Below, piece by piece: positions 3,241 to 38,665 of a stretch of 64,000 nt of DNA. The first letter of the stretch is position 1, and every line of letters begins with the position of its first letter. Origin of the DNA: an uncultured Solirubrobacteraceae bacterium (GTDB lineage: Bacteria; Actinomycetota; Thermoleophilia; Solirubrobacterales; Solirubrobacteraceae). Below the pieces are notes generated by a model, which was given only the letters and a program-made list of their open reading frames with translations, ran no database searches and had not been told where the DNA came from. The stretch spans positions 2,659 to 66,658 of the forward strand of contig CAWJVE010000001.1 of assembly GCA_963846255.1 (NCBI GenBank), written 5' to 3'. The position numbers and the translations under genes are program-made.

Positions 3241-4342
3241 CTAGGACGCTGCTCGCGCCTGGCAGCGTCGAGGAGCTAGAGGCCGAGAAGCATCGATCGG
3301 CCGGGCGGCAAGGAAGACCGCCCGGCCGGTCTGCGTCTCAGTGCGGTCCCCGGCTCGGGGATCCGACGCTCGCCGTCTAGTCGCCTCCGGCCGAGCGGGC
3401 GACTCGGCGATCGCGAGGTCTTCGAGCGTCACGTCCGGGCCCTGCTCGGCGGCAAGTTTGGCGGAGGCCCCCAGCGTCTCCCACGGGCGCTTGACCGCGA
3501 GCCATATGCCCCCGGCGCCCAGCAGCGTCGCGCACAGGACCCAGCCGAGGGCTTCGGTCCCGAGGCCGACGTACTTCAGCCCCGAGGCGAAGATCACGAA
3601 GGTGATCACGGGCCGGATGTAGCGATCGGGCGCGGTCGAGGAGAACAGCGAGCCGACGAACACCGCGGGGACGCTGCCGATGATCAGCGAGAGGGTGACG
3701 CCGAATTCGACGTGCCCGAAGGCGAGCGGCCCCGAGGGCCGCCGCTGCCGTCAGCGGGACGGCCTGGGTGAGGTCGGTGCCGACCAGCTGGTTGGCACCG
3801 ATGGTGGGGTACAGGAACAGCATCAGGATGATCATCAGCGAGCCGGAGCCGACCGAGGTCATGCCGACGACGACACCGCCGATCATGCCGATCAGGACCG
3901 TCCGCACGGGACGCGGGACGATGTCCTGGATGAAGGAGTAGCGGCCCTCGCCGGAGCGCAGGTCGAGCGTGTAGCGCAGGACCATCGCGGCCGCTCCCAC
4001 CAGCAGCGCCACGCCGAGCACCGTCTCCACGTTCGTCTGCGCCGACTTGGAGTTGCCGATGATGTGCAACAGATAGGCGCCCAGGAAGGCCATCGGCACC
4101 GAGCCCAGCACCAGCCAGCCGACGAGCTTGCGGTTGACCGTGCCTTTGCGCAGGTGCACGCTCGCGCCCACCGGGCGCATCACGACGGCGGCGACGAGGT
4201 CGCTGGAGATCGCGTGCGAGGGAGTGACACCGAACAGCAGGATCAGCATCGGCGTCATCAGCGCCCCGCCGCCCGCGCCGGTCATTCCGACCAGGAAGCC
4301 CACCACGGCGCTCCCGAGCACGATGTAGGGATCTATATGCAT
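3241..4342 (-). CDS. Sulfite exporter TauE/SafE family membrane protein (one frameshift near 3730)
   Basis: GFLVGMTGAGGGALMTPML, GMTSVGSGSLMI and LVGTDLTQAVPL are typical TSUP repeats. The C-terminus continues in the 3241-3663 frame. Confidence 0.85.
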
Positions 4343-4655
4343 GACTGGTGCTCGACCGGGGTACTCGTGGAGCGCATGTCGCGCCAATCCGCCACCCGCG
4401 GCTCCTCCGTCCTCTCCCGAGCAGCGGAAGATAGCGCGACCGCCTCCGCTCGGGGAGCGGAGCCGTTCGGGGCGGCCCGGTGGGCCGCTGCACAGGAGGG
4501 ATGAGTGGGCGCGGACATACCGGGGTTGCGCTCGCTCGCGGCGGTGATTATGATGCGCGACGCGCGACGAGATTTGACCAATCTCGACATTTCTTGGGGT
4601 AATCCGGACGAGGGGCAGCGCTAGGGTCCGGGAGAGGCAAGGAGGCGGGGAGTAG

Positions 4656-6161
4656 ATGAGTGTCGAGGCGGGGAGTGGGACCGACAAGGGATTCCTGAGT
4701 CCGCCGGTAGCGATCCCTCGCGGGGGGCTACTGCGCCGCCGGCGCTTTACGCTGGCACCCGGGATATCCGAGGCGCGCGGGCCGAGCGCCTGTCTGCGCC
4801 GGGATGCGCTGTTCCGTCGCATGCTGCTGATCGCCGACCTGCTCGCGGTCGTCGGCGCCTTCGTGATGACGGTCGAGTTCTCCCACCGCTCGGTGGCGCT
4901 GACCTGGTACGCGCTCGCCGCGCTGCCGATCGTGGTCGTCTGCGCCAAGCTGCTCGGCCTCTACGATCGCGACGAGGCCCTGATCCGCAAGACGACCCTG
5001 GACGAGGCCCCGAAGCTGTTCGAGTTGGCCACGCTGGTGGCGCTGCTGGGGTGGCTTGCGGGTGGGATGTTCGTGTCCGGGCACCTCGACCGCCACGAGG
5101 CGCTGTTCCTGTGGCTCTCGCTGGCCGTGCTGCTCGTCGTCCTGCGCGCCGGGGCCCGGCAGCTGGCGCTGCGCATCGCGCCGATCGAGCGCTGCCTGTT
5201 CATCGGCGATGAGCTCTCGGCCGAGACGATCCGCTCGCGCCTGACCGGCCACGGCGGGGTCCGCGCCGACCTGGTCGCCCACCTGGACCTCGACAAGGTC
5301 GGCCCGTGGTCCACCGACAGCTTCTCCGAAGCCCGTCTGGCCGAGATCCGCGACCTCGCCCAGACGCTCGACGTGCACCGGGCGATCATCGCCCCCCGCA
5401 GCGTCGACGCGGGCGAGATGCTGAACCTGGTGCGGACCCTGAAGGCCGTCGGCGTCCGCGTCAGCCTGCTGCCCCGCCTGCTCGAGGTGGTGGGCTCCTC
5501 GGTCGAGTTCGACGACCTCCACGGCGTCACCGTGATGGGGGTCCGGCGCTTCGACCTGACCCGCTCCTCGGCCCGCTTCAAACGCATCTTCGACCTCCTC
5601 GGGGCCTCCATCGGACTCATCGCCATCTCGCCCCTGTTGATCGTGATCGGGGTCGCCATCAAGCTCGACAGCAACGGCCCGGTGCTCTTCCGCCAGCTCC
5701 GCGTGGGCCGGCACGGCAAGCGCTTCTACATGCTCAAGTTCCGCACCATGGTCACCAACGCCGAGGAGCTCAAGGACGGCCTGCGGGACCGCAACGAGGC
5801 CAAGGATGGTCTCTTCAAGATCGCCGAGGACCCGCGCGTGACCCGCATCGGACGGCTCCTGCGCCGCAGCGCACTGGACGAGCTGCCCCAGCTGTGGAAC
5901 ATCGTGCGCGGGGAGATGAGCCTCGTCGGGCCCCGGCCCCTGGTCGTCGACGAGGATCAGCGCGTGGAGGGCTGGCACCGCCGCCGTCTGGAGCTGATGC
6001 CCGGGATGACCGGCCCCTGGCAGATCCTCGGGCCGGCCCGCGTGCCGCTACGGGAGATGGTCGCGATCGATTACCTGTACGTCGCCAACTGGAACCTGTG
6101 GAGCGACGTCAAGATCCTGCTGCGCACCGTCCCCCACGTGCTCTGCCGTCGCGGTCTCTGA
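4656..6161 (+). CDS. Priming polyprenyl-phosphate glycosylphosphotransferase (WcaJ/WbaP-like sugar transferase)
   Basis: N-terminal TM helices plus a Bac_transf domain: KRIFD, KFRTM, DPRVTRIGRLLRRSALDELPQLWNIVRGEMSLVGPRP, PGMTG. Confidence 0.95.
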   Translation: MSVEAGSGTDKGFLSPPVAIPRGGLLRRRRFTLAPGISEARGPSACLRRDALFRRMLLIADLLAVVGAFVMTVEFSHRSVALTWYALAALPIVVVCAKLLGLYDRDEALIRKTTLDEAPKLFELATLVALLGWLAGGMFVSGHLDRHEALFLWLSLAVLLVVLRAGARQLALRIAPIERCLFIGDELSAETIRSRLTGHGGVRADLVAHLDLDKVGPWSTDSFSEARLAEIRDLAQTLDVHRAIIAPRSVDAGEMLNLVRTLKAVGVRVSLLPRLLEVVGSSVEFDDLHGVTVMGVRRFDLTRSSARFKRIFDLLGASIGLIAISPLLIVIGVAIKLDSNGPVLFRQLRVGRHGKRFYMLKFRTMVTNAEELKDGLRDRNEAKDGLFKIAEDPRVTRIGRLLRRSALDELPQLWNIVRGEMSLVGPRPLVVDEDQRVEGWHRRRLELMPGMTGPWQILGPARVPLREMVAIDYLYVANWNLWSDVKILLRTVPHVLCRRGL

Positions 6162-6472: not shown

Positions 6473-7651
6473 TCAGCGCTGTTCGAGCGCCTTCTCGAGC
6501 TCTGCCTGCAGCGCCCGGCGGAAGGCGGCCACGGAGAAGCGCTGCGCGTTGGCGACCGCGTCCCGGGGGTCGAACGACAGCTTCTGCAGGTCTTCGATGG
6601 CCCGCCGGAAGTCCTCCACGTCGTCCAGCTGCGCGAGCAGGCCGGTGCGGCCCTCCACCACCGTCTCCAGCGCTCCTCCGGCGCGCGCGGCGATCACCGG
6701 CCGTCCGGCGGCCTGGGCCTCCACGGCGGTGATCCCGAACTCCTCCATTCCCGGGACCAGCACCGCCCGCGCGCCGGCGTACAGCCCGGCCAGCTCGCCG
6801 TCGTCCACCCGGCCCAGGAAGCGGGCCTCGGGGTATGCGCCGGCGAGGACGTCGTGGTCGGGGCCGGATCCCGCCACCGCGATCGGGGCCTGCGCCCGGC
6901 GGGCGGCCTCGAGGGCCACCGCGACGCGCTTGTGGGCGACGAGCTCCGACACCAGCAGCAACTCGTCCCCCGGCACGCCGGGGGCGAAGCGGGTCGTCTC
7001 CACGGGCGGATGTACGACCGCCGCCTCGCGGCCGTAGAAGCTCCTGATGCGCTCGCGGGTGAGCAGCGAGTTGGCCACGTAGCGGTCCACCCGCCGGCTG
7101 GCCGCTAGGTCCCAGCGGCGGATCATCGCGAGCACTCCCCGCATCGGCCCTCTGAGGACGGCCGGGGTCTCCGCGAGGGCACGCTCCCGCTCGTGCCAGA
7201 CGTAGCGGAACGGACTGTGGCAGTAGCAAAGGTGGACGGCGCCGGCCGGCGCCCGGATGCCATGCGCGAAGGCGCTGCTGCTGCTGATCAGGGCGTCGCA
7301 CGGGGGCGCCGTCAGGCGGCTGGCGGCCGCGGGGTAGAGGGGCAGCATGCGCCGGAAGTTGCTCTGGTCGGCGCCCAGCCGCTGCAGCGGCGAGGTGGTC
7401 ACCGAGTGCCCCTGAAAGCGCCACCCGAGCGCCTGCTGGTCGTACAGCAGGGTGAGGATCGGAGCCCGCTCGAACATGTCGCTGATGGCGGCGAACACGC
7501 GCTCGGCCCCGCGCATCACGAGCAGGTAGTCGTGGGCCAGTGCCACCCGGGCCGTGGGGGCTGCAGCCGCCGCCTTTCGGTCGGTGCCGCCGGGCCTCGC
7601 CGCTGTCGCCCCGCCCGGGGCGCCGGAGCCCCACGCGGGGAGATCGCTCAT
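6473..7651 (-). CDS. GT4 glycosyltransferase (WbaZ-like mannosyltransferase type)
   Basis: VALAHDYLLVMRGAERV, YCHSPFRYVW, EEFGITAVEAQAAGRPVIA. Confidence 0.9.
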   Translation of the reverse strand: MSDLPAWGSGAPGGATAARPGGTDRKAAAAAPTARVALAHDYLLVMRGAERVFAAISDMFERAPILTLLYDQQALGWRFQGHSVTTSPLQRLGADQSNFRRMLPLYPAAASRLTAPPCDALISSSSAFAHGIRAPAGAVHLCYCHSPFRYVWHERERALAETPAVLRGPMRGVLAMIRRWDLAASRRVDRYVANSLLTRERIRSFYGREAAVVHPPVETTRFAPGVPGDELLLVSELVAHKRVAVALEAARRAQAPIAVAGSGPDHDVLAGAYPEARFLGRVDDGELAGLYAGARAVLVPGMEEFGITAVEAQAAGRPVIAARAGGALETVVEGRTGLLAQLDDVEDFRRAIEDLQKLSFDPRDAVANAQRFSVAAFRRALQAELEKALEQR

Positions 7652-7693: not shown

Positions 7694-8467
7694 ATGTTCA
7701 GGGCCATGTCCGACCAGATGCTGCGGCTGCTCGGCTGGCGCTCGCTGCTGATCCACGGCGACCCATGCGTGCTGGATCGCTGGCTGTGGCTGCGTTCGCA
7801 CCTGCGCACGGGTCCGCTGCGGACGCTCGACGCGGGCTGCGGCAACGGAGCCTTCAGCATCTTCGCCGCCCGCGAGGGGAACGAGGTCCTGGCCACGTCG
7901 TTCTCCGAGCGCGAGCTCGACGACGCCCGTCGCCGGACAGAGCTGCTCGGGCTCGGGGGCGTGGAGTTCGCGGTGCTCGACCTGCGCGACATCGAGCAGC
8001 GCCGCGAGGAGCTCGGGAGCTTCGAGCAGATCATCTGCCTGGAGACGATCGAGCACCTCAGCGATGACCGTGGCCTGTTCGTCTCGCTGGCGTCCCTGTT
8101 GCGGCCCGGGGGGCGGCTGCTGCTCACCACGCCCTACGACCGCCACCGGCCGTTGTACACCGAGCAGCGTCACCCGAGCGCGGTCGAGGACGGGTCCCAC
8201 GTGCGCTACGGCTACTCGCCGGAGCGCCTCGCCGAGTTGGCCCTCGAGGCCGGGTTGCAGCCGCAGCCGGCGGGGTTTGTGAGTGGCCTGGTCTCCCAGC
8301 TGCTGACGAACCTGATGCGGCGCCTGACGGGGCGGTTCGGGCGCATGCCCGCGTGGGCCCTGATGCTGCCGCTGCGCCCGCTGGTGGTACTCGACCGCCC
8401 GCTGACCCGGCTGCTGCGCTACCCCTACCTGTCGGTCGCGATCGTGGCCACGCGCGGCGAGGAGTGA
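7694..8467 (+). CDS. Class I SAM-dependent methyltransferase
   Basis: LDAGCGNG motif I; IICLETIEHL; LRPGGRLLLTTP. Confidence 0.88.
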   Translation: MFRAMSDQMLRLLGWRSLLIHGDPCVLDRWLWLRSHLRTGPLRTLDAGCGNGAFSIFAAREGNEVLATSFSERELDDARRRTELLGLGGVEFAVLDLRDIEQRREELGSFEQIICLETIEHLSDDRGLFVSLASLLRPGGRLLLTTPYDRHRPLYTEQRHPSAVEDGSHVRYGYSPERLAELALEAGLQPQPAGFVSGLVSQLLTNLMRRLTGRFGRMPAWALMLPLRPLVVLDRPLTRLLRYPYLSVAIVATRGEE

Positions 8468-8471
8468 CCCG

Positions 8472-9377
8472 CTAGGCGCCCCCCGCCAGGTGTGCGAAGT
8501 TGGGCCACAGGGAGAGGTCGAGCTCCGGGAAGTCGCGGATCAGGCGCATCACATCGTCGCTGTAGGCCTCGACGTAGGCCGCCCGCGTCGCGGGGTCGAG
8601 CTGCGGCTTCTCGTCACGGCGGCGGGGGTGGGCCTCCAGGCCGGCGATCGGCGCGTCCCCGCCCACACCGAGGAAGGCGAACGTGCGCCGCAGCTCGGTC
8701 TCGGGCTCGGCCGCACAACGCTCGTACTGGAGCACGAGCAGTCGGGAGCGGTCGAAGTGACGGGTGAGCTCGCACAGCTCGGCGTGGTAGAGGCCGCGCA
8801 CGAAGGCCGCCAGCGGGGCGTGGCGGCTCAGCGCCATACCACGGCGTTCGGCCACCGCGGCGTCGAGGGCGAGGCCCGAGATGAGCCGCTCGACGGGGTC
8901 TCTGAGGATCATCAGCAGCCGCGCCTCGGGCGCGGCCCGAGCGAGCAGCGGCGGGATCCAGGGTGCGCTCGCGTACAACGGCGTCCACTCGCCCACCTTC
9001 TGACCGTGCGGGCGCGGGAAGTACTGCTGGTAGGCGGCGAGGTCGTCCTCGCTGAAGCCTCCCGAGTGGAAGCGGTCGAAGAAGTGGAGCTCCTTCATCG
9101 CCACCGGCCGGGCGATCTCCGGGTGGGCGGCGATCAGGTTGTACCAGCGGGTCGTACCGCAGCGCTGGAAGCCAACGCCGACGAAGTCCGGCGGGCCGGT
9201 GGTCCATCCCGGTGGCGCCTGCGGCGGCGCGGGGGGCGTGTCCACGCCGCCATTCCAATCGCCAGGGCCGACGCCGGTCCGGGCGGCCTCTTCGCCGCGC
9301 AGCAGCCCGGCCAGGCGCGCCCGCGCCGACCGCCAGCGGCTCGCTCGTGTTCTGGGCGCTGGTGCTGGCATGGTCAC
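8472..9377 (-). CDS. PAPS-dependent sulfotransferase (divergent copy)
   Basis: PPDFVGVGFQRCGTT (5'-PSB loop), KELHFFD, GEWTPLY, LRDPVERLIS (3'-PB). Confidence 0.9.
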   Translation of the reverse strand: MTMPAPAPRTRASRWRSARARLAGLLRGEEAARTGVGPGDWNGGVDTPPAPPQAPPGWTTGPPDFVGVGFQRCGTTRWYNLIAAHPEIARPVAMKELHFFDRFHSGGFSEDDLAAYQQYFPRPHGQKVGEWTPLYASAPWIPPLLARAAPEARLLMILRDPVERLISGLALDAAVAERRGMALSRHAPLAAFVRGLYHAELCELTRHFDRSRLLVLQYERCAAEPETELRRTFAFLGVGGDAPIAGLEAHPRRRDEKPQLDPATRAAYVEAYSDDVMRLIRDFPELDLSLWPNFAHLAGGA

Positions 9378-9445: not shown

Positions 9446-10594
9446 GTGTCCGGCCAGCCGCTGCGGCTCCTCTTCACGCTGCCGTGGGCGACTCGCTCGG
9501 GTGGCGCCGAGGAGATGCTCCAGGCGCTGGTCCAAGGCGGCCCGGCCCACGGCTACGAGTCCGAGCTCGTGTTCCTGCAGGGGGGTCCGTGGCCGGAGCA
9601 GCTTCGCGCCGAAGGTCTCTCGGTTCACGTGCTCGGGGTTGGCCGCGTGCGCCAGCTGCACCTGGGTGCGCGGGCGATCCTGAGGCTCGCCCGCATCCTG
9701 CGCTCGCGGCGGCCCGACGTGATCGTCAACTGGGTGGGCAAGACCCAGCTTTACGGCGCTCCCGCGGCCGTGCTCGCGGGGCTCGGCGAGCGTGTGGTGT
9801 GGTGGCAGCACGCGATCCCCGGCGACCACTGGCTCGACCGTGCCGCCACCGCGCTGCCGGCCGCCGCGATCGGCTGCACCTCACACGCCGCGGCCGAGGC
9901 ACAGAGCGGGATCCGCCCAGCGAGGCCGATGTTCGTGGTTGCGGCCGGGACCCCGATTCCCGAGCACACCGCACCCGAGCGCGCGACGGCGGGGAACGGA
10001 GGGCTGCCCGCCGGCACGCTGCTGATCGGCCTTGTTGGCCGCCTGCAGCCGTGGAAGGGGCAGGACCGGCTCGTGCGGTCGGCGGCGCTCCTGCGCGAGC
10101 GCGGCCACGAGGTTCACGTGCTGCTCGTGGGCGGCGACTCGTGGGGGCTGGCGCCGGAGTATGCGCGTGCGCTGCCGCGGCTGATCGCCGAGCTGGAGAT
10201 GGACGAGCACGTCACGATGACGGGCGAGGTGGCGGACGCGGGGCCGTACATTGAGCGCATGGACGTGCTCGTCAACGCCTCTGACCCGGAGCCCTTCGGG
10301 ATCACGCTGCTCGAGGGCATGGCCCGCGGCGTGGCGGTGGTAGCGGTGGACAGGGGCGGCCCCAGGGAGATCGTCGAAGACGGAGTCACCGGCGTGCTCG
10401 CGCACAGCGGCGATCCGTCCGCGCTGGCCGACGCGATCGAGCCGCTGCTGGCCTTTCCCGAGCGGCGGGGCCAGCTGGCGGCGGCCGGTCGCGAGCGCCA
10501 GCGGGCCGAGTTCAGCGACGACGCGATGTGCCGCCGCTTCGCGGAGCAGATGCGCCTGCTGGTGGCCGCCCGCGGGCCCACGCGGGACGGGTAG
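9446..10594 (+). CDS. GT4 glycosyltransferase
   Basis: SGGAEEM, VGRLQPWKGQD, EPFGITLLEGMARG. Confidence 0.92.
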   Translation: MSGQPLRLLFTLPWATRSGGAEEMLQALVQGGPAHGYESELVFLQGGPWPEQLRAEGLSVHVLGVGRVRQLHLGARAILRLARILRSRRPDVIVNWVGKTQLYGAPAAVLAGLGERVVWWQHAIPGDHWLDRAATALPAAAIGCTSHAAAEAQSGIRPARPMFVVAAGTPIPEHTAPERATAGNGGLPAGTLLIGLVGRLQPWKGQDRLVRSAALLRERGHEVHVLLVGGDSWGLAPEYARALPRLIAELEMDEHVTMTGEVADAGPYIERMDVLVNASDPEPFGITLLEGMARGVAVVAVDRGGPREIVEDGVTGVLAHSGDPSALADAIEPLLAFPERRGQLAAAGRERQRAEFSDDAMCRRFAEQMRLLVAARGPTRDG

Positions 10595-10597
10595 GCG

Positions 10598-11798
10598 ATG
10601 GCCGTCGTGTCGGGGCCCGAGCAGGCCGCGCCGGGCGGGGCGCACTCCGAGGAAGGACCCCTCGACGTCACGATCGTGGCCCACGACATCGGGCCGGTGG
10701 GAGGGATGGAGCTGGTCCTCTCGGAGCTGATCCTCGGCCTGCGCGAGCGCGGCGTGGCGGTGAGCGTGATCGCCCGCACGTGCGAGCTGCCGGCCGGCTC
10801 CGGGGTGCGCTTCCATCGCGTCCGGGGGCCCGGCCGACCGTTCCTGCTCGCCTACCCGTGGTTCCTGCTGGCGGCTTCGCTGGTTACGGCCCGGCGTACA
10901 CGCGGTGTCCTGCAGGTCACCGGCGGGATCGTGCTCAACCGCGCCGATGTCGTCTCGGTTCACTACTGCCACCAGGTCGGTCCCGCCAACCCCAGCCGCG
11001 CGAGTCTCCTCTACCGCGCCAACATCCGCTTGGTGCGGGTCGCCAAGCGCCTGTCCGAGCGGGCGGCCTTCCACCGCAATCGCGAGGCCGTGTTCGCGTG
11101 CGTGTCGGAGGGGGTTGCCGACGAGGTCCGCGAGCACTACCCCCGCCTGGCGCCACGCGTCATCGCGATCCACAACGGGGTCGACCTCGAGCGCTTCGAA
11201 CCGGGCCGCTGGCGCGAGCAGGCGGGCGAGCGGCGCGGGGAGCTCGGGATCGACGAGCGACAGCTGTTGGCGCTCTTCGTCGGCGGCGAGTGGGAGCGCA
11301 AGGGGCTGCGAGCGGTGATCGAAGCGCTCCCGGACGCTTCCGAGTGGATGCTCGCGGTCGCGGGGCCGGGCGACCGCCCCCACTTCGAGCAGCTGGCCCG
11401 CTCCCTCGGGGTCGAGCGAGCGAATCCGCTGGCTGGGGGTGCAGCGGGAGGTGGCGCCCCTGTATGCGATGGCGGACGCGTTCGCGCTGCCGACGAGCTA
11501 CGAGACGTTCTCGCTGGCCACCTTCGAGGCCGCCGCCAGCGGCCTGCCGCTGCTCGTCACGCCGGTCAACGGGGTCCGGGAGCTGCTCGAGCCGGGCGTC
11601 AACGGCCTCTTCGTCGAGCCTCGCTCCGAGAGCGTCTCGGGGGCTCTCGGGCAGCTCTCTGCCGACCGTGCGGGGATGCTCGAGATGGGCCGCGCGGCGC
11701 GCCGGGCCTCGCTGCGCTTCAGCTGGGAGAACACGGTCGAACGCCACCTGGAGCTCTACCGGAGCCTGGCGGGCGGGCGCCGCGGTACCCTCGCCTGA
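10598..11798 (+). CDS. GT4 glycosyltransferase (frameshift near 11425)
   Basis: GGMELV, IHNGVD and RKGL in the first frame; YETFSLATFEAAASGLP in the 11439-11798 frame. Confidence 0.85.
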
Positions 11799-29399: not shown

Positions 29400-30258
29400 T
29401 CACCCTGCGGCGTGCTCTGCGGGCACCAGGTCCCACATCACCTCGGCGGTGTGAAAGGCCCCCGCGGCGAGCGCCTCCCGCGCCGCCAGACCGAGGCTCA
29501 GCTCATAGCAGCCGATCGCCTGCAGCTTCACGCCGGCTGCCTCGGCGTCGAGGTGCGCGACCCGCGCCTCGCGCAGCGGCGGCATCTCCGGGACGTCGGT
29601 CAGGTACGCCTGCCAGTAGGCATCCACGTCGCCTGTGCCGCGGGGCCCCGGCGCACCCACCCAGGCGGGCCAGCCGTGGGTGACGCAGTAGGGCAGCTCC
29701 GCGTACAGCGTCGACGGGCATGCCCCGCTGCAGCAGCCGCTGCGCGCAGCGGCGCGCGAGCACGTGGTCGACGTGGCCGCCGATGCCCGCCGGGGCATAC
29801 ACGCGCGAGGCCCGCGGGACGGTTGCCGCCAGCGCGCTCCCCACCGCCGCGGCGCCGACCGCGTCGGGACCGGCGCGCTGCTGGATCTCGGGGAGCTCGA
29901 GGTTGTGCGCTTGGCGGTCGACGAGTGCCAGCGCGCGTGCGTCCTCCTGCAGCCGCGCGCGCGCCCGCTCGCGCGAGTCGGCCAGTCCCGCGAGTGCCTC
30001 CCACGGGCCCCTGCGCCCCGGCGCGGGGAGGGCGGCGAAGACGTTCACCACGTTCAGCTCACCGGTGCCGCTCAACACGCTCCAGCAGCTCAGCGCGGCG
30101 TCGTCCCAGTGCGGCGAGAGCACCAGCGGGGGAGCGTCTCGATCGACCTCGACGTCGGCCCCGCCGCTGCCGGGGACGCCTCGCTCGAAAAGTGTTCGGG
30201 AGCGCCGCAGAAGCGAGGCGGGCGCGCTCCGCAAACGGCGTTTCGGAGGGGTCGTCAT
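29400..30258 (-). CDS. PIG-L/LmbE family de-N-acetylase (frameshift near 29715)
   Basis: LSPHWDDAALS and GIGGHVDH metal motifs, R..ED, and YAELPY in the second frame. Confidence 0.82.
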
Positions 30259-30323: not shown

Positions 30324-31305
30324 ATGCACACGGCTGAGGACTTCTCTTCGGATCCATCCGCCGTGCGGGGGAGGGTGCCGGACTTCTTCATCGTCGGCCA
30401 TCACAAGAGCGGTACCACGGCTCTGTACGAGATGTTGAGGCAGCACCCGGAGGTCTTCATGTCCGACATCAAGGAGCCCCGTTTCCTTGCCGGCGACATG
30501 CGTCCCCGCTTTACCCCGCCCCGCGGCCGCCGCCTGCCCGAGACGCTCGAGGAGTACCTGTCACTGTTTTCCGACGCCGCACCGACGCAGCGCGTGGGCG
30601 AGGCCTCGCCGTCGTATCTCTTCAGCCACACCGCGGCGGCGGAAATCGCACGGTTGCAGCCGGCGGCGCGGATCATCGCGATCTTCCGCGAGCCGGCCAG
30701 CTTCCTGTATTCGCTCCACCTGCAGCTCCTGCGCAGCCACGTCGAGTCAGAGAAGGACCTCCTGAAGGCGATCGCGCTGGAGGGCCCCCGCCGGGAGGGC
30801 CGCGAGATACCGCGGCGCTCGCACGTTCCACAGCTGCTGCAGTACTCCGATCACGTCCGCTACGCCGATCAGCTGCGCCGCTATCACGAGCGCTTCCCCC
30901 CGGAGCAGGTGCTGGTGCTCGTCTACGAGGACTTCCGCGACGACAACGAGGGCACGCTGCGCGCGGTGATGCGCTTCCTCGAGATCGACGAGGACCGCCC
31001 GCTCGAGCGCGTGAACGTCAAACAGACGACGACCACGATGCGCTCCCAGCAGCTCGACGACCTGGTGCTGTCGCTCACGCTCGGTAGCTCGGCTCGCTCA
31101 CGCCGCACCCGCGCGGCGCTGAAGGCGCTCTCGCCCCAGCGCGTTCGGCGTGAGGCGTTGCGCCAGTTCCGTCGCCGCGCCGTGCTGGGGCAGGCGACCC
31201 CGCCGGAGCAGGAGGAGATGGAGGAGCTCAGGCGTCGCTACCAGCCCGAGGTGGCGCGGCTGAGCGAGTACCTGGGACGGGACATGCTCGCTCGGTGGGG
31301 CTACT
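30324..31305 (+). CDS. Sulfotransferase paralog F
   Basis: VPDFFIVGHHKSGTT, KEPRF, GEASPSY, FREPASFLYS, WGY. The stop after WGY appears lost to an indel (the ORF runs on to 31430). Confidence 0.9.
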
Positions 31306-32251
31306 GCGAAGACCGTCGTCTTCCAGCGCCACTTCGAGCGCTTCCAGGGCGGCCACCTGAAGGTCTTTCACTACTTCGAGCACGTGCGCAGCTCCCCCGC
31401 GCATCGCGCCCTGATCCGCTTCTCCAGTGACTCCTACTGGGGCCCGGAGAACCCCTGGTGGCCGTTCTCCGACGCTGTGCTCGCGCCGGATGATCCGACG
31501 GTCGGCGATATCCGCTTCCTCGCCGGAATGGACTGGCGCGCGGTGCCCCCGGCGCAGCGCGAGGACCCACCGGTGCCGGTGATCAACCTGATCCAGGGCT
31601 TTCGCCACGCGCGCCCGCAGAGCCCGGCCTTCGAGTTCCTGCGCCACCGGGCGATCCGCCTGTGCGTGAGCCCCGAGCTCGAGCAGGCCCTGAGCGGGAT
31701 CGACGTCGTCCGCGGGCCGGTGATGACGATCCCGATCGGCCTCGACGTCGAGCGCCTGCCCGCACCGCGCCCGCTCGAGCAGCGCGAGCTCGACTGCCTG
31801 GTGCTCGCCGTCAAGGCGCCACGCCTGGGCGCCGCCGTGGCTGAGGGCCTGCGCCGGCGCGGTCAGCGGGTGATGCTCGTCGACCGGCTCCTACCCAGGG
31901 AGCAGCTGATCGAGGGTCTGGCGGGGGCCCGCGTGAGCGTCCACCTGCCGGTGCTCGTCGAGGGCGCCTACCTGCCGGCGCTGGAGAGCATGGCGCTCGA
32001 CACGCTCGTGGTCTGCCCGGACTGCGTCGGCAACCGCTCCTTCTGTAGGGACGGGGAGACGTGTCTGGTGCCCGAACGCAGCGAGGCCGACCTGCTGCGG
32101 GCGGCCGGCGAGCTACTGGCGGCCGGGCCCCGAGCAGCGCCGGGTGCTGCTGGAGGGCGGCCGTGAAGAGGTGCAGCGCCACGCGCTCGTGCAGGAGCGC
32201 CGCGAGTTCCTGGAGATCCTGGGCCGCGTGCCGGAGCTCTGGCTAGCATGA
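31306..32251 (+). CDS. GT-B (GT4-like) glycosyltransferase (indels at the start and near 32130)
   Basis: FQGGHLKVFHYF N-terminus, EGAYLPALESMA, GNRSFCRDGETCL. The C-terminus LEILGRVPELWLA* is in a shifted frame. Confidence 0.7.
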
Positions 32252-32299: not shown

Positions 32300-33112
32300 G
32301 TGCTCTACATCGTCACGGTGCACTACCGCTCGCCGCGGTGGATCGAGATCCAGCACCGCTACCTACGCCGCCACATCCAGGTGCCGTTTCAGGTGTGGAC
32401 CTCGCTGGAGGGCATCGACGGCTCCTACGGGCGCTACTTCGACCGCGTCCTCGAGCAGCGGGGCCTCCACGCCGCAAAGCTCAATCACCTTGCGATGGAG
32501 GTCACCCACGAGGCCACCGACGATGACCTGCTGATGTTCCTGGACGGCGACGCCTTCACGATCGCCGACCCGATGCCGCTGATCGAGGAGAGCCTGCAGC
32601 GAGCCCCGCTGCTGGCCGTTCGCCGCGCCGAGAACGTGGACGAGCCACAGCCGCATCCGAGCTTCTGCGTCACGACCGTGAGTACCTGGCGCTCGCTCCC
32701 CGGGGACTGGACCGCGGGTCCCACCTGGACCGGTGCCCACGGCCGACCGACGAGCGACGTGGGCGCCAACCTGCTGCGCAAGCTCGAGCTCTCCCAGACC
32801 CCATGGGTCCAGGTGCTGCGCTCCAACCGGCGCAACCCCGACCCGCTGCACTTCGCCATCTACGGGGGGGTCGTTTACCACCACGGCGCGGGGTTCCGCG
32901 CGGGCGAGCTCAGCCCCGCCCACCGCGACCACGCGCCGGCGGCCCCGGCACGGCCGGGCTTCGCGCCCGCGAGGCCGCTCGCGCGCCTCTACGGCGGCCT
33001 GCGCTGGCGGCGCTGGGAACGCTCGACGAGCGCCCGCCTGGTGCGGGAGTCCGAGCGTGTGTACGGCGAGATCGCCTCCGGCGGGGAAGGCTGGCTGGGC
33101 GAGCTCGCCTGA
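32300..33112 (+). CDS. Hypothetical protein, possible GT-A fold glycosyltransferase
   Basis: Clean 270-aa ORF with MLYIVTVHY, LMFLDGDAF (DxD), PHPSFC, VYHHGAGFR. Confidence 0.55.
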   Translation: MLYIVTVHYRSPRWIEIQHRYLRRHIQVPFQVWTSLEGIDGSYGRYFDRVLEQRGLHAAKLNHLAMEVTHEATDDDLLMFLDGDAFTIADPMPLIEESLQRAPLLAVRRAENVDEPQPHPSFCVTTVSTWRSLPGDWTAGPTWTGAHGRPTSDVGANLLRKLELSQTPWVQVLRSNRRNPDPLHFAIYGGVVYHHGAGFRAGELSPAHRDHAPAAPARPGFAPARPLARLYGGLRWRRWERSTSARLVRESERVYGEIASGGEGWLGELA

Positions 33113-33127: not shown

Positions 33128-33943
33128 TCAGCCCGCGCGGAAGGCGCTCGAGCGGCGCGAGGCGATCTCGTAGGTCAGCGCTTCGGAGACGGTGGCGTGC
33201 AGGCCCCGGGTCCGCACCACCACCCGTACCGTCGCCGAGCCGGAGACCGAGAACGAGTGCAGCAGCGTGTAGCTCCCGTCCGCCTGCACCAGCCCGCGGG
33301 CGATCGGGCGCCAGACTTCCGGGCGGCGCCGGCTCTGGCGCTGGAGGACCACCCGTGCGCCGGGTAGTGCCGGGGTGACGGTCCCGCGGAAGGCGAGCTG
33401 GGTCGCGGTCCCGTCGAGGCGTGCACGGCGAGTGAGGAGCGGGAGCTCCGAGCCCGCGGGTGCCGGCCCCGTGAGGGTCACGGCGGCGGCCCCTACGACC
33501 ACGCGCGTGCGGGCGCTGCGCGCGCCGAGGGCTTCGGCCCAGAAGCTGCTGACCCGTTCGAGCCCCGACGCGGTCGTGAAGCCGAAGTGGCCCGTTTCGT
33601 CGGTGGTCGCGCTGCCGGCGAGCGTGGTCCCCCGCGTCCCGGCCGTGCGCTGCTCGATCGTGACCGTCTGCAGGGCCGCCGCCGCGGGTTCCGGGCAGGT
33701 GAGCGTTCCGTTGAGGGTCGCGGCTTCACCGGCGTGCAGCGAGGGGGAGAGGGGGACGAGCGTGACCGAGCACGCTTCCAGCGTCTCCGCTTCACCCGTG
33801 CCGGGCGCTGGCACTTCGCCGGCCCCGGGTGCCGGGGGAGCGGCTTCGGTGAGCAGGCGGCGCGCCGCGTGGGCGGTGCCGGCCGGCACGAGCGCGAGCG
33901 CGAGCGCGAGCGCGACGGCGCGTCCTGCGTAACGAGCGTCCAC
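33128..33943 (-). CDS. Secreted hypothetical protein with Ig-like beta-sandwich repeats
   Basis: Signal peptide AVALALALALVPAGTAHAA; two modules LNGTL..VTIEQR..TDETGHFGF and FRGTV..VVLQR..VQADGSYTL. Confidence 0.6.
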   Translation of the reverse strand: MDARYAGRAVALALALALVPAGTAHAARRLLTEAAPPAPGAGEVPAPGTGEAETLEACSVTLVPLSPSLHAGEAATLNGTLTCPEPAAAALQTVTIEQRTAGTRGTTLAGSATTDETGHFGFTTASGLERVSSFWAEALGARSARTRVVVGAAAVTLTGPAPAGSELPLLTRRARLDGTATQLAFRGTVTPALPGARVVLQRQSRRRPEVWRPIARGLVQADGSYTLLHSFSVSGSATVRVVVRTRGLHATVSEALTYEIASRRSSAFRAG

Positions 33944-34037: not shown

Positions 34038-36371
34038 CTAGCCGCCCGCCACCGCCAGGGCCCGCTCGTAGACCTCTTCGAGGCGGCGGGCGATGACCTC
34101 CGGGTGGTAGGCCGAGATCGCCTCACGGGCCGCGCCGGAGAGGCGCTCGCGGGCATCCGGGTCCTGACCAAGCTCGCGCATCGCCGAGGCCAGGAGCCGC
34201 TGGTCGCCCATCCGGAACAGGCGCCCCGTGCGGCCATCCTCGATCACAGTGGCGGGCCCGCCCTGGTCGGGGGCCAGCACCGTCAGCCCGGCGGCCATCC
34301 CCTCGAGCACCACGGTCCCGAAGGGCTCCGGGATCGTCGAGGCGTGAACGAGCACGTCGAGCCGTGCCAGCTCGCGCCAGATGTCCTCCTGGAAGCCGCG
34401 GAAGGAAACCCGCTCGCGGAGGCCGAGGCTGTCCACCAACTCGGTGCAGGGAGCGCTCATAGTCCTGCTCGCCGAACATCGGCGAGCCGATCAGCACGGC
34501 GCTCTCACTCGCCTCCCGGGAAGGCCTCGGCGAAGGCGCGCAGGAACAGGTCCTGGCCCTTCCAGGGCGCGATCCGGCCGAGCATCCCGAAGGTCGTGTG
34601 GGCGTGTGGCGAGCGGGGCAAGGGCGAGGGCTCGACCGACGCCGGGATCACCCAGCTGTCCGCCGGGGCGCTGCCGTCGAGCGTCGCCAGGGTGGCGTCG
34701 GAGTTGGCGATCACGGCCACGGTCAGGCGCCGAACGAGCGCCCGCACAAGCCTCACGGCTGCCGGCGGGATGTAGTCCTCGGCGACACGGTCGCGGACGT
34801 GCCATACGACCGGGACGCCGGCGAGCCGGGCCGCGAGGCTCCCGTAGACGCCGGACTTCAGTGAGTTGGTGTGGACCAGATCAGGCGCCAGCCGGCGCAG
34901 GCGGTGCGCCAGCCGCAGCGATGTAGGAGGCCGTGCTCCAGGCGCTCCCGAGCGCTCCCGCTCCGGGTCGCACCTGCTCGCGGCGCAGGTCGCGCGCGGC
35001 GGCGGCGATCGGCATCACCTCGACTGACACGCCGGCCTTCACGAGCCTCTCGGCCAGCGGCCCTTCCTCGCCCAGGATCACATGGGCGTTGACGCCCCGC
35101 AGGTGCGGAAGCAGGCGGCTGAGCTGGATCTCCCCGCCGGACAGCCGGGCCACGTGGTCGAGGTACACCACCCGGGGGCGCGGGTCGGGCCTGCGCTCCA
35201 GCAGCGAGCGGTACAGCTCGCGGTGGCGGTCGGCCACCGCCGACCAGGAGTGATCCTCGGCGAACCGGCGCGTGCGCTCGCGGCCGGGGAGATGGCCGGC
35301 GGCAGCCTGCCGCAGGCGCCCGGCCAGGGCCCCCGCGTCCCCCGGCGCGACCAGCAGCGAGCGGTCGAGCTCGAGCGCGGCCTCGGCCAGCCCGCCGACA
35401 TCGCTGACGATGCTGGGGGTGCCGCAGGCGGCGGCCTCCAGCACCACCAGCCCGTAGCCCTCCAGCGCGACCGTGGGCACGACCGCCACGTCGGCCCCGC
35501 GGTAGGCGTCGATGAGCTCGGCGTCGCTGACGCGGCCCAGCACGCGCACGCGGCCGGCCAGCGGCGCCCGCCCGGCGCGCTCGCCCAGCTGCTCGCGCAG
35601 CGGCCCGTCGCCGACCAGCAGCAGCGTCGAGCCCTCCGGCAGCACGCCCTCGAGCTCGCCCCACGCGTCGAGCAGCACGTCGAGCCCCATGCGGGGGACC
35701 AGCCTGCGCGTGCACACCGCCACGAACGCCCCCGGGGCGAGACCCAGCTGCGCCCGCGCCCGCTCGCGGTCGCCGGGGGTGAACAGCTCCAGCGACACTC
35801 CCGGAGCCAGCACGTGCACCCCCCATGGACGCACTCGGTAGCGCTCCACCAGCACTCTGCGAAAGGCCGAGGACAGGACCACGTGGGCGTCGATGCGGGC
35901 GTGCACGCGGCGCTCCAAGGCCGCCCGCAGGCGGTGGCGCAGCCGCGAGCTGTCACCCGCGACGACGTTCTCATCCGCCCACGGGCCCTGGAAGTGGAAC
36001 ACCTTCGGGATCCCGCCGGCGCCACCGAGCAGCAGCGGGGCGGCGGCGTACAGGGCGAAGTGGGCGTCGAGCAGCTCGGCGCCGGAGCGGGCCCGCGCGG
36101 TGGCCCGTCTGAAGCCCAGCAGCCGCCGCGCCAGCGACGCCTGCGGCCCGGCGATGACCGCCACCGACGGGGGCGCATCGTCGGCCGGGCCGATCACCAC
36201 CCCACGCGCGTCCTGGAGCTGTTCGAACAAGGCCCGGTAGTAGCGGTTCAGCCCTCCGAGGGTGGCGGGGAACCAGCCCATGCCCAGCATCAGCACGCGG
36301 GGGTCGCGCTCGGGGCGCCCCTCGGGCGAGGGTCCGCGGGGCGCGTGGCTGTGGCTGCTGGTCTCCGTCAC
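34038..36371 (-). CDS. Tandem GT4-GT4 glycosyltransferase fusion (frameshifts in the second half)
   Basis: Domain 1 GGLNRY...EGYGLVVLEAAACG runs in frame into domain 2 VVYLDHVARLSGGEI, which continues GRIAPWKGQD and EPFGTVVLEGMAAG in shifted frames. Confidence 0.8.
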
Positions 36372-36640
36372 CGTGCTCGTCCTTGCAAAATCGGGATTCG
36401 CGCCGTACTGTAGGAGGCGGGCCTGCCGTCGGGGTTTGGGGACTCGCAGAGGCTCGAAACAGCAGACCGGCGCTCTGCGCGAAGTGCCTTCGACCACCTG
36501 CACCCGAGACCACCAGCACGGATGCCCGACATCACCGACCTCCTGCGCCGGCACGCGCTGCGGGCGCCTCTACCCGGTCTCGCCAAGCTCTACAATGAGC
36601 CCATCCGCGAGGGCGATGGGGCCATCCTCGAGGGCCAGCG

Positions 36641-38665
36641 ATGACCGGTACCAACGGAACCTCGGGCACTAACGGAAACGGCGGCGCGCCGTCCAGCGAG
36701 CGCCGCGGGGCTGCGATCGTCGCCGAGGAGGCCAGGGACGCCTTCCGCCGGCTGACCGAGAGGCCCGCCGACCTGCTGCGCTTCGCCACCGCGGGCTCGG
36801 TCGACGACGGCAAGAGCACCCTGATCGGGCGCCTGCTGTATGACAGCAAGCAGGTTCTCAGCGACCAGCTGGCTCACGTCGAGCAGACCAGCCAGCGGAT
36901 GGGCCATGACTTCCTCGACCTCTCGCTGCTGACCGACGGCCTGCGCGCCGAGCGCGAGCAGGGGATCACGATCGACGTCGCCTACCGGTACTTCGCGACC
37001 GCCCAGCGGCGGTTCATCATCGCCGACACCCCCGGGCACGAGCAGTACACCCGCAACATGGTCACGGGCGCCTCCACGGCGGACCTCGCGATCGTGCTTG
37101 TGGACGCCCGCAAGGGTGTCGTCGCCCAGTCCAAGCGGCACGCCTTCATCAGCTCGATGCTGGGGATCCCGCACGTGGTGGTGTGCGTCAACAAGATGGA
37201 CCTCGTCGACTACGACGAGGGCGTCTTCGACACGATCGTGGAGGAGTTCGACCGCTTCGCCGCCCGCCTGGAGATGCCCGACGTGACGTTCATCCCGATC
37301 TCGGCGCTGCTGGGCGACAACGTGGTGGAGCGCTCCGAGGCGATGCCCTGGTACCAGGGCCCGCCGCTGCTCTACCACCTCGAGCACGTCCACATCGCCT
37401 CCGACCGCAATCTGATCGACGTCCGCTTCCCGGTCCAGTGGGTGATCCGCCCGCCGGCCAGCAGCGGGATCGACTACCGCGCCTACGCCGGCCAGGTCGC
37501 CGGTGGCGTCATCCGTCCCGGCGACGAGGTCGTGGTGCTGCCGAGCGGCCAGCACTCGACGGTGGCCGGGATCGACACCTACGACGGGCCCGTGCAGGAG
37601 GCCTTCCCGGCGATGTCGGTGGCGATCCGGCTGGGCGACGACATCGACGTCTCGCGTGGCAGTACGATCGTGCGCAAGCAGAACCAGCCCACGGTCTCCA
37701 ACAGCTTCGAGTGCCTGCTGTGCTGGATGTCCGAGGAGCCCCTCAGCCCGCGGCGGCGGTACGCCGTCAAGCACACGACCAGCAGCGCGATGCTCAGCGG
37801 GGTGGATCTGCGCTACCGCATCGACGTCGAGACCCTGCACCGCGACGAGGCCGCCGAGACGCTGCACCTGAACGACCTCGCCCGCGTCCACATGCGTCTC
37901 AGCTCGCCGCTGGTGTTCGACTCCTACCGCCGAAACCGGCTCACCGGCAGCCTCATCATCATCGACGAGGCGACCAACGAAACGGTCGCGGCCGGGGTGA
38001 TCCTGGACACCGAGGTCGAAGGCCCCGCGGCCACCACCAAGACCGAGCGCAGCCCCAACGTCCGCTGGCAGGGCTCGCGGATGACCCGCGAACGGCGCTG
38101 GACGATGCTCGGCCACACGGGTGCCACGGTGTGGTTCACGGGCTTGCCGGGGGCCGGCAAGTCGACCATCGCGGCGGCGGTCGAGGAGCGCCTGATCGCC
38201 GCCGGTCAGCCGTCCTTCCTGCTCGACGGCGACAACCTCCGCCACGGGCTCAACGGCGACCTCGGCTTCGACGAGGAGGCGCGCACCGAGAACGTGCGCC
38301 GCACCTCACACGTGGCCAAGCTGCTCGCCGAGTCGGGGTCGGTCGCGCTCGTGAGCCTGGTGAGCCCATACGCAGCCGACCGCCGGGCAGCCGCTGCGCT
38401 GCACGGCGATGCCGAGCTCGGGTTCCTCGAAATCTTCCTCAGCGCCACGCTGGAGCTGTGCCAGGAGCGCGACCCCAAGGGCCTCTACGCGCGCGCTCGC
38501 TCGGGCGAACTGGCGGGCATGACGGGCGTGGGGGCACCGTATGAGGTGCCCACCGAGCCGGACCTCGTTCTCTGCAGCCAGACCGAAACGGTCGAGGAAG
38601 AGGTCGACCGCGTGATCGAGCTGCTCATCGAGCGGGGCCTGATCTCGCCGCTGGGCGGCGAGTAG
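36641..38665 (+). CDS. cysNC: Bifunctional sulfate adenylyltransferase subunit 1 / APS kinase (CysN-CysC, NodQ-like)
   Basis: GSVDDGKST, AEREQGITIDVAYRYF, DTPGH, NKMD; C-terminal WFTGLPGAGKST, LDGDNLRHGL, RDPKGLY. Confidence 0.96.
   Translation: MTGTNGTSGTNGNGGAPSSERRGAAIVAEEARDAFRRLTERPADLLRFATAGSVDDGKSTLIGRLLYDSKQVLSDQLAHVEQTSQRMGHDFLDLSLLTDGLRAEREQGITIDVAYRYFATAQRRFIIADTPGHEQYTRNMVTGASTADLAIVLVDARKGVVAQSKRHAFISSMLGIPHVVVCVNKMDLVDYDEGVFDTIVEEFDRFAARLEMPDVTFIPISALLGDNVVERSEAMPWYQGPPLLYHLEHVHIASDRNLIDVRFPVQWVIRPPASSGIDYRAYAGQVAGGVIRPGDEVVVLPSGQHSTVAGIDTYDGPVQEAFPAMSVAIRLGDDIDVSRGSTIVRKQNQPTVSNSFECLLCWMSEEPLSPRRRYAVKHTTSSAMLSGVDLRYRIDVETLHRDEAAETLHLNDLARVHMRLSSPLVFDSYRRNRLTGSLIIIDEATNETVAAGVILDTEVEGPAATTKTERSPNVRWQGSRMTRERRWTMLGHTGATVWFTGLPGAGKSTIAAAVEERLIAAGQPSFLLDGDNLRHGLNGDLGFDEEARTENVRRTSHVAKLLAESGSVALVSLVSPYAADRRAAAALHGDAELGFLEIFLSATLELCQERDPKGLYARARSGELAGMTGVGAPYEVPTEPDLVLCSQTETVEEEVDRVIELLIERGLISPLGGE

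Follow-up and report, generated by a model that had tools for sequence, protein, structure and literature searches.

What is made by the gene block at positions 3377-38665 of the window, the whole 64,000-nucleotide stretch of Solirubrobacteraceae DNA analysed here? An earlier note had read the block as a surface-glycan locus. Pfam and NCBIfam scans, together with a protein map drawn from the intact copy of the locus in a 93%-identical relative, recovered every gene named in that note: a priming transferase (PHPT), eight GT4 genes, Wzz/Wzc, a Wzy-like protein, an ABC exporter, eight sulfotransferases, a sulfatase, a PIG-L deacetylase, three methyltransferases, CysNC and TauE. The sulfotransferases comprise six paralogs, one 3-OST-like enzyme (STx) and one Stf0, with seven of the eight being of the animal heparan-sulfate type. 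The eight GT4 genes encode nine GT4 domains, one gene being a GT4-GT4 fusion. Genes beyond those listed previously encode a 270-residue DxD protein, a 273-residue secreted protein and a ninth sulfotransferase. The features are as follows.

3377..4342, minus strand: TauE/SafE anion transporter, one frameshift, variable among congeners (PF01925, E 9e-32)
4656..6161, plus: priming polyprenyl-phosphate sugar-1-phosphate transferase (TIGR03025 above cut-off, 334.9 against 295.55 bits; PF02397)
6473..7651, minus: GT4b glycosyltransferase, core
7694..8467, plus: SAM methyltransferase MT1, variable (PF13847)
8472..9302, minus: sulfotransferase STx, closest among solved structures to heparan sulfate 3-O-sulfotransferase 1 (E 6e-14)
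9446..10594, plus: GT4c, core
10589..11798, plus: GT4d, core, one frameshift
11940..13641, plus: Wzz/Wzc-like co-polymerase, frameshifted in the window, 565 aa in G041
13638..15217, plus: Wzy/WaaL-fold GT-C membrane protein, by model against WaaL, frameshifted in the window, 523 aa in G041 (HpsL, E 2e-8)
15240..17042, plus: MsbA-type ABC exporter, putative flippase, frameshifted in the window, 598 aa in G041
17039..18106, plus: sulfotransferase ST1, orthogroup behind the ABC gene
18090..19073, plus: sulfotransferase ST2
19057..20016, plus: sulfotransferase ST3
20038..21402, minus: formylglycine-type sulfatase, in an insert; best match human N-sulfoglucosamine sulfohydrolase and S1_8A sulfatases
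21401..22231, plus: Stf0-family sulfotransferase, in the insert with the sulfatase (PF09037 met, E 1e-50; below the cut-off of NF047724, mycobacterial trehalose 2-sulfotransferase, 174 against 400 bits)
22228..22980, minus: SAM methyltransferase MT2, rare among congeners
23040..23813, minus: FkbM-family methyltransferase (TIGR01444 above cut-off)
23881..25086, plus: GT4e, core
25079..26254, minus: GT4f, divergent GT4
26247..27407, minus: GT4g
27391..28362, minus: sulfotransferase ST4
28346..29362, minus: sulfotransferase ST5
29400..30123, minus: PIG-L de-N-acetylase, cassette gene, one frameshift (E 1e-4, below the Pfam cut-off; both zinc motifs present, PHWDD and HVDH)
30324..31310, plus: sulfotransferase ST6, cassette orthogroup
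31297..32251, plus: GT4h, divergent GT4, cassette gene
32300..33112, plus: soluble 270-residue protein, candidate GT-A glycosyltransferase (DGDA motif)
33128..33943, minus: 273-aa predicted secreted protein (N-terminal hydrophobic stretch; weak CarboxypepD_reg)
34038..36371, minus: GT4-GT4 fusion, 776 aa in G041, frameshifted in the window
36641..38665, plus: CysNC (ATP sulfurylase large subunit and APS kinase), 905 against a cut-off of 715 bits
53417..54433, plus: sulfotransferase ST7, the seventh paralog in the expanded family, encoded 15 kb away from the block

The block probably directs synthesis of an undecaprenyl-linked repeat that receives its sulfates in the cytoplasm, is flipped by the ABC exporter and is then polymerised to a multiply sulfated surface polysaccharide. 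The priming enzyme would place a sugar-phosphate on undecaprenyl phosphate, and the GT4 enzymes would use common nucleotide sugars to assemble a repeating unit that is large and branched, with roughly ten sugars; nucleotide-sugar genes are absent from the block itself. Each sulfotransferase orthogroup would sulfate its own position at the cytoplasmic face, with PAPS supplied by CysNC plus a CysD encoded on another contig, while optional methyltransferases and the PIG-L deacetylase would give strain-specific marks. The MsbA-type ABC exporter would replace Wzx in flipping the lipid-linked repeat, which the WaaL-fold protein would polymerise under the Wzz/Wzc protein. The undecaprenyl-linked glycan pathway proposed in the earlier note is supported, with many sulfotransferases having intact catalytic residues. 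A heparosan or chondroitin backbone was rejected since no synthase was identified; the block yielded neither a heparosan synthase nor an epimerase. No Pfam family was found for the 270-residue DGDA protein, for which a search of solved structures gave nothing significant (only a viral GT-A protein, E 1.4).

The block is not a chance assembly, since 24 congener loci keep the same gene order and position. The site is fixed, between the PKD/PstS-like and U356/SPOR/bacA genes. The methyltransferase set, to which the heavy methylation proposed in the earlier note would be due, differs from locus to locus. Each of the 24 congener loci that have the Wzy-like gene contains 3-10 sulfotransferase-family matches; the ABC gene is present in 21 and sits 28-33 kb on in the other three. 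The sulfotransferase subfamily was present in 98 of 150 sampled congeners with approximately six matches per genome (619 matches over 99 genomes in total), counts of congeners that include kin and are not independent samples. Searches by tblastn with four Wzx queries detected no Wzx in the scored stretch of any of the 24 congener loci. The flank of one locus has a weak match (25%), and Wzx exists elsewhere in the source genome. Same-backbone loci of sister genera lacked a sulfotransferase match in all 11 cases and had Wzx in seven; one such locus has the ABC protein (52%) without sulfotransferases. In five congeners that lack the subfamily, the U356 neighbourhood contained neither a subfamily match nor such a locus, and these genomes may belong to another subclade.

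The ABC exporter is a single chain of 598 residues with ABC_membrane and ABC_tran domains. Whole-chain export of the Wzm/Wzt (KpsMT) type was rejected on the basis of this one ABC chain in place of a separate permease and ATPase. The protein scored below the cut-offs of flippase families (PglK NF050066, 160.5 against 1000 bits, a narrow PglK model whose score says nothing on function; HepA, 227 against 725), and a phmmer search against solved structures returned generic eukaryotic exporters. In-frame fusions of the ABC protein with ST1 were found in P0024, P0025, L029, L077 and L058; in three congeners ST1 does not come next after the ABC gene. Among longer versions of the protein were two relatives whose N-terminal half is unassigned; the others were unrelated double ABC proteins, and no further sulfotransferase fusion was among them. 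From the gene context and the fusions, we infer that the exporter flips the undecaprenyl-linked glycan.

The next question is whether the flipped oligosaccharide is polymerised or ligated. The Wzy-like protein scored 19.1 bits against the Pfam Wzy_C cut-off of 31.7. Its mediocre structural model (pLDDT 63) matched WaaL with a Z score of 19.4 and an rmsd of 4.3 over 341 aligned residues, and a Foldseek search with this model returned no match at E ≤ 0.001, the best being WaaL at 1.7e-3. The modelled WaaL-like fold would fit a polymerase and a ligase alike. The Wzz/Wzc protein has a Wzz N-terminus, two membrane spans and a kinase-like domain with the Walker A sequence GDGRST, in which Arg stands for the Walker A Lys across the clade. 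It is unlikely that the same lipid-linked sulfated oligosaccharide is attached unpolymerised, in single units, to proteins that are secreted or on the surface (or to a lipid), the WaaL-fold protein being an oligosaccharyltransferase served by a PglK-like flippase. Consistent with such ligation, the best match of the model is the ligase WaaL, the Wzz/Wzc protein has lost the C-terminal tyrosine cluster, large secreted PKD-domain proteins flank the locus, and the block contains no LCP wall-attachment gene, two being present elsewhere in the genome; ABC flippases so built are also described as serving ligase and N-glycosylation pathways (PMC2841628). However, in nearly every locus read the Wzz/Wzc gene adjoins the Wzy-like gene, and in the remainder it lies within a few genes of it, an arrangement also found in sister genera that use Wzx, and sister loci have separate O-antigen-ligase/TPR proteins. 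Moreover, no Wzy polymerase structure surfaced for comparison with the model.

The sulfation steps of the polymer pathway depend on the sulfotransferase paralogs, the nearest characterised sequences and folds to which are heparan-sulfate NDST1 and 3-OST (17-22% identity in structural alignments); N- and O-sulfotransferases score alike against them. All 94 of the 94 alignment rows keep the PAPS-binding Lys, Arg and Ser as well as the KEP Glu. The ELHFFD sequence of STx aligns with EVHFFD of heparan sulfate 3-O-sulfotransferase 1, and 3-O-sulfotransferases carry a Glu-His-Asp triad. The residues invariant in the paralogs are the catalytic residues named in PMC11625862. By crude hydropathy, no sulfotransferase has a signal peptide-like stretch. 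Only 11 of 90 rows had their nearest neighbour within their own genome, and dN/dS was 0.13-0.38 in 14 of 14 ortholog pairs; as judged from sequence comparison, the six paralogs are old and under purifying selection. Recent tandem amplification for dosage alone was rejected.

More unlikely still than ligation is that the polymer is made with mostly redundant paralogs, or paralogs acting on one or two positions, some of them serving glycolipids or small acceptors, the product being therefore only moderately sulfated. The paralogs share 53-60% identity and have identical catalytic residues, their copy number is loose (1 to 14 with a constant GT core), and three sulfotransferases, ST7 among them, are encoded away from the block. 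Trehalose is sulfated by relatives of Stf0 (PMC11625862), and synechan is reported to be made without one of its two sulfotransferases (PMC8205485). Against redundancy, every orthogroup is under purifying selection, the loop past KEP differs among paralogs in length and sequence, and orthogroups persist across genomes. Two of them track gene context, ST1 behind the ABC exporter (SH-aLRT 98) and ST6 in the PIG-L/GT4 cassette (SH-aLRT 99; 9 of 11 rows), within a tree whose backbone is largely open (32 of 107 inner branches). Since the paralogs form cross-genome orthogroups tied to gene context, the site-specific sulfation claimed previously has support, of an indirect kind.

A pathway-owned PAPS supply, as the earlier note put it, lacks support in that form: the locus has CysNC and no cysD. 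The CysNC is the only CysN found in the source genome, which is 81% complete, and the only CysD is on another contig within a sir-cysH-cysD cluster; many congeners have a full cysD-cysNC pair in the locus. Nor are the sulfatase and Stf0 supported as pathway parts. They form a mobile 2.2-kb insert that is absent from the two closest relatives, the two genes occur as a pair at other places in other congeners, and the insert is likely a passenger with its own substrate. Stf0 was also found on plasmids in eight records, all distant. Activity of the sulfatase is doubtful since the 81%-complete genome yielded neither a formylglycine-generating enzyme, with only an EgtB domain found, nor a radical-SAM sulfatase maturase.

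At least nine genes are frameshifted in the window. The same single-base indels (e.g. at 12130, 15471, 15525 and 15992) set the window apart from two relatives and from short-read contigs of four other runs; thus, the frameshifts are most likely read errors and not decay. That the locus is degenerating and makes no product is very improbable: wzc, wzy, the ABC gene, PIG-L and two GT genes are frameshifted and GT4a and cysD of the relatives' loci are missing, but the shared indels separate the window from relatives and other runs, flanking genes are also frameshifted, and in G041 every frame is open.

The polymer reading can be extended to the deacetylase-sulfotransferase-GT4 cassette, found in 11 of 12 genomes. 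A rather unlikely idea is that of a two-gene bacterial NDST and a coat akin to a glycosaminoglycan, each repeat of which would be sulfated at up to eight or nine positions. Here GT4h would add GlcNAc, PIG-L would strip the acetyl group and ST6 would N-sulfate the amine, while ST1, docked on or fused to the ABC exporter, would license export of the finished repeat. PIG-L and the sulfotransferase are separate divergent genes in all cassettes read, never one chain, and PIG-L is not tightly bound to a sulfotransferase (one within 450 nt in 18 of the best 30 loci). Genomes without the locus contain a more distant PIG-L group. If true, this extension would mean that a large soil clade has bacterial heparan-type N- and O-sulfotransferases that are soluble and differ in site specificity.

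The description of the system as undescribed did not survive comparison with actinomycete precedents, wps-1 of Actinoplanes missouriensis (PMC13390465) and the sulfated wall polysaccharide of Arthrobacter (PMC7278926). As described, wps-1 resembles this locus in its actinomycete host, Wzy- and Wzz-like genes, heparan-sulfate-type sulfotransferase, methyltransferase and adjacent sulfate adenylyltransferase/APS kinase, sulfation being predicted from the genes without chemistry; it has 11 genes, two sulfotransferases, GT2/GT26 enzymes and a Wzx flippase (PMC13390465), whereas the present locus has approximately 30 genes, eight sulfotransferases, eight GT4 genes, an ABC exporter and a deacetylase. 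The Arthrobacter product, a polysaccharide-peptidoglycan complex with a trisaccharide repeat, is cited in PMC7278926 as a chemically described sulfated wall glycan of an actinobacterium. The synechan xss cluster of Synechocystis sp. PCC 6803 likewise combines a priming transferase, eight glycosyltransferases, Wzy, a co-polymerase and sulfotransferases, but is reported with two sulfotransferases, Wzx, an outer-membrane export protein and its own regulators in a Gram-negative host; synechan is sulfated, with sugars and sulfates roughly matching the gene numbers, 8 and 2 (PMC8205485). Capsule clusters of Cobetia marina KMM 1449 and Vibrio sp. KMM 8419 contain cysNC/cysD and sulfotransferases and have NMR-proven sulfated products, but are described with KpsMT-type whole-chain export, disaccharide repeats and one to three sulfotransferases (PMC11766843, PMC11641403). 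The locus shares with the synechan, Cobetia and Vibrio types PAPS-dependent sulfotransferases within the cluster, not a complete PAPS gene set. By analogy, the sulfated polymers chemically shown for like gene mixes in Synechocystis, Cobetia and Vibrio favour the sulfated-polymer reading.

Two further comparisons concern the sulfotransferases. The putative glycosaminoglycan-like cluster of Pontiella sulfatireligans is likewise GT4/GT2-rich with a glycosaminoglycan-type sulfotransferase and methyltransferases, but as reported has one sulfotransferase in the cluster and an amino sugar that would be made via a transaminase, in a marine member of the Verrucomicrobiota, where a dye assay indicates mostly N-sulfation (PMC7356697). 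Heparan sulfate NDST1 and the 3-O-sulfotransferases share the Lys/Glu catalytic pair, whereas the locus enzymes are predicted to be cytoplasmic without a membrane anchor and the deacetylase is a separate PIG-L protein. For the exporter, Wzk/PglK are also single-chain and MsbA-type and are reported to flip undecaprenyl-linked glycans and replace Wzx (PMC2841628), but the locus ABC protein falls under the PglK cut-off, lies beside Wzy- and Wzz-like genes and in some cases is fused to a sulfotransferase. Glycan clusters with sulfotransferases are a general kind already known, recurring in many lineages. No description of this locus was found in the literature on Solirubrobacter, Thermoleophilia, Solirubrobacteraceae and N-sulfation, a search in which subscription journals were thinly covered and supplements may hold cluster surveys.

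Bacterial sulfated polysaccharides are still described as rare outside cyanobacteria; those of actinomycetes were called unverified in 2026 (PMC13390465), and glycosaminoglycan-active sulfotransferases were, as of 2020, stated not to be known from prokaryotes (PMC7356697). With its hundreds of soluble heparan-type sulfotransferases, already grouped into orthogroups, the locus family offers a natural enzyme panel. It adds a candidate pair of deacetylase and sulfotransferase and a fusion of exporter and sulfotransferase, and all of these can be expressed and assayed with no culturing. If the pathway is real, the enzymes could be used for engineering heparin-like polymers, and a widespread soil genus would be a sulfate sink with a strongly anionic coat.

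At 70% G+C the window is rich in shadow frames and genes were therefore predicted using a codon model, and their products were compared with Pfam and NCBIfam. Each gene listed in the earlier note was found between 3377 and 38665. A relative with 93% DNA identity (G041), in which all locus frames are open, served as the clean reference; there the last two GT4 glycosyltransferase frames are a single 776-residue fusion, thus the earlier count of eight GT-B genes holds. The single-base indels of the window are most likely read errors since the same differences were seen against two relatives and against short-read contigs of four other runs. The main features are:

3377-38665, the glycan locus
15240-17042, ABC exporter
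29400-32251, cassette of PIG-L (de-N-acetylase), sulfotransferase ST6 and glycosyltransferase GT4h
53417-54433, sulfotransferase ST7, outside the block

Gene order was mapped in 24 congener loci, all containing a Wzy-like gene. Nearly all are at the same site, flanked by a PKD/PstS-like pair on one side and the U356, SPOR and bacA genes on the other. The core comprises the priming transferase, GT4b, GT4c, GT4d, GT4e, Wzz/Wzc, the Wzy-like protein, the ABC exporter and 3-10 sulfotransferase-family matches (counts in three loci are possibly inflated by frameshift pieces); methyltransferases, a second sulfotransferase family, PIG-L, TauE and cysD-cysNC are variable. The locus is real and conserved. 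One congener (G212, C2 and C6) contains the whole locus in two copies and another (G193, C1) has two ABC genes within one locus. The flank at 1-3234, of lower G+C content (62%), encodes lysine-rich secreted PKD-domain and PstS-like proteins; these genes adjoin the locus in most carriers, diverge fast (25-45% identity) and possibly encode surface proteins or glycan acceptors.

Identity to ST2 among the paralogs ST1-ST7 is 53-60%. Of the solved structures, the closest in sequence and fold (predicted model, pLDDT 74) are an uncharacterised Alicyclobacillus enzyme followed by heparan sulfate NDST1 and 3-O-sulfotransferases; for the separate STx the closest match is 3-OST-1 (E 6e-14). All 94 complete rows (of 133 candidates, the others being short or without the motif) retain the Lys, Arg and Ser that bind PAPS as well as the KEP Glu, residue types named catalytic in an excerpt of PMC11625862. 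The dN/dS was 0.13-0.38 in 14/14 ortholog pairs. A tree of 110 rows (quick search, SH-aLRT support only, 32/107 inner branches open) placed 12 of 13 ST1-labelled rows in a single 15-row clade (SH-aLRT 98). The paralogs did not cluster by genome, with the nearest neighbor in the same genome for just 11/90 rows. Searching with ST2 (E ≤ 1e-40; congeners at least 85% complete) gave matches in 98/150 congeners and 0/16 genomes of other families of the order, with a total of 619 matches across 99 genomes (1-14 in each). A class-wide profile search, scoring at most 7 candidates per genome, matched 37/300 genomes with one or two distant copies each, the sole drawn congener excepted. None of the locus sulfotransferases has an N-terminal hydrophobic stretch, a result suggesting that sulfation should occur upstream of export.

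Gene overlaps of 17 nt occur at 18090-18106, 19057-19073, 28346-28362 and 27391-27407, and the conserved C-terminal WGYD motif of the sulfotransferases contains the ATG of the following gene. In relatives the motif has TAT in 71/82 cases, compared to a 15% share of TAT among the tyrosine codons of called genes; at 57 of the 71 a frame of at least 200 residues begins. Each sulfotransferase gene thus brings along a start for any gene behind it, which may favor tandem arrays. Elsewhere in the window's own genome (G000, C3:33580-36431) two second-family sulfotransferases and a methyltransferase adjoin polyphosphate kinase and phosphate-uptake genes; in congeners this family stays within the glycan locus. 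Genomes of another family of the order (G027, G032, G036) have 17-25 Sulfotransfer_3 matches, which belong to another type and in several cases lie in tandem multi-domain frames.

The ABC gene end was read in 56 loci, a set biased because most were fetched around a sulfotransferase and in which at least three rows count a stretch a second time; a sulfotransferase start lay within 500 nt in 54. In-frame ABC-sulfotransferase fusions were found in three of the 56 (two of the fused frames were displayed), and the same fusion exists in two database proteins, for which ST1 was the best match. Against the link, the ABC gene is relocated away from ST1 in three congeners and stands without any sulfotransferase in one sister-genus locus. 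The protein is a generic MsbA-type exporter scoring under all flippase cut-offs; Wzk has shown that an exporter of this type is able to replace Wzx (PMC2841628, in part). Two relatives of the exporter (P0121 and P0122, 43% identity) have an extra N-terminal half of ∼580 residues for which Pfam gave no family.

The Wzy-like gene was found in 30/300 family genomes, 21 of which are other genera. In 11 of these 21 loci that were read, 11 sulfotransferase queries gave no match (11/11) and a domain scan of 88 of the 114 further, unlabelled proteins found no sulfotransferase domain; Wzx was present in 7, the ABC gene in one and neither within the stretch in three. Since the sister-genus loci have no sulfotransferase match and mostly Wzx, it appears that an older Wzx/Wzy locus acquired sulfotransferases and the ABC exporter in one clade; we infer this direction from kin that are not independent.

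GT4h, present in 12/151 genomes, lies in a divergent PIG-L / sulfotransferase-GT4h cassette in 11 and beside PIG-L alone in the twelfth. The cassette position within the locus differs between genomes, and of the 11 cassette sulfotransferases included in the tree 9 fall in one clade (SH-aLRT 99) and two in another. PIG-L retains the HxDD and HxDH motifs and resembles glycopeptide glucosaminyl deacetylases. Judged by context alone, the cassette would have the look expected of a split N-deacetylase/N-sulfotransferase, a reading weakened because PIG-L is also found outside the cassette and, of the 30 best PIG-L loci, only 18 lie within 450 nt of a sulfotransferase. The best match of the sulfatase, N-sulfoglucosamine sulfohydrolase, would fit N-sulfation, tempered by next matches to S1_8A enzymes and by a search of the 81%-complete genome that found no sulfatase maturase. 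Inclusion of the sulfatase and Stf0 in the glycan system, as in the earlier note, is not supported: both are missing at this site in the two closest relatives. Stf0 occurs in 45/150 congeners, each of which is also in the list of carriers of the expanded sulfotransferase family, is paired with the sulfatase in 7/7 loci read, and in several genomes has coordinates far from the glycan locus.

The proposal that the locus has its own PAPS supply fails for this genome: cysNC is present in the window and cysD absent, CysD is on another contig behind sir and cysH with no cysN after it, and no CysN besides the locus CysNC was found in the genome. Many congeners have cysD-cysNC inside the locus plus a second cysN; thus, a dedicated PAPS supply is common in the genus though not in this genome. 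The egtD-egtB-like ergothioneine genes at 57440-59610 belong to a nearby sulfur-consuming pathway.

The Wzy-like model matched WaaL (Z 19.4, rmsd 4.3, 341 aligned) more closely than SEDS polymerases (Z 11-12.5), which places the predicted protein among undecaprenyl-pyrophosphate GT-C enzymes with a fold fitting polymerase and ligase alike. The co-polymerase retains Wzz and kinase-like domains, with one or no tyrosine at the C-terminal end in congener copies but tyrosine-rich tails in several copies from sister genera. Two LCP genes elsewhere in the genome make wall attachment of the glycan possible. Downstream of the locus, a 530-residue multi-span GT-C-like protein (47524-49116) weakly matches alpha-1,6-mannosyltransferase A and is conserved together with bacA and ST7. 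The genome also contains a second, ordinary Wzx/Wzy cluster (C2:2613179-2633982) with an asparagine-synthase-like gene, in which no sulfotransferase match was found.

The locus probably makes a multiply sulfated surface polysaccharide. The literature searched held no description of the Solirubrobacteraceae locus; its kind is already known. From the published portions available, sulfated products are tied to gene sets of this type for synechan (PMC8205485) and for Cobetia and Vibrio capsules (PMC11766843, PMC11641403), Pontiella exopolymers are N-sulfated by dye assay (PMC7356697), and a review cites a sulfated polysaccharide-peptidoglycan complex of Arthrobacter (PMC7278926). The actinomycete Wzx/Wzy cluster wps-1 of Actinoplanes, for which sulfation is predicted, contains a methyltransferase and two sulfotransferases, of which one is of the heparan-sulfate type, and has a PAPS gene next to it (PMC13390465, in part). 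The locus works like synechan and wps-1 but with Wzx replaced, and is therefore not a strict Wzx/Wzy member. Sulfotransferases in glycan clusters are thus an already known kind; the locus's own features are the ancient diversification of its heparan-type sulfotransferases within a large soil clade, the coupling of an ABC exporter to one of these enzymes, and a mobile deacetylase-sulfotransferase-GT cassette.
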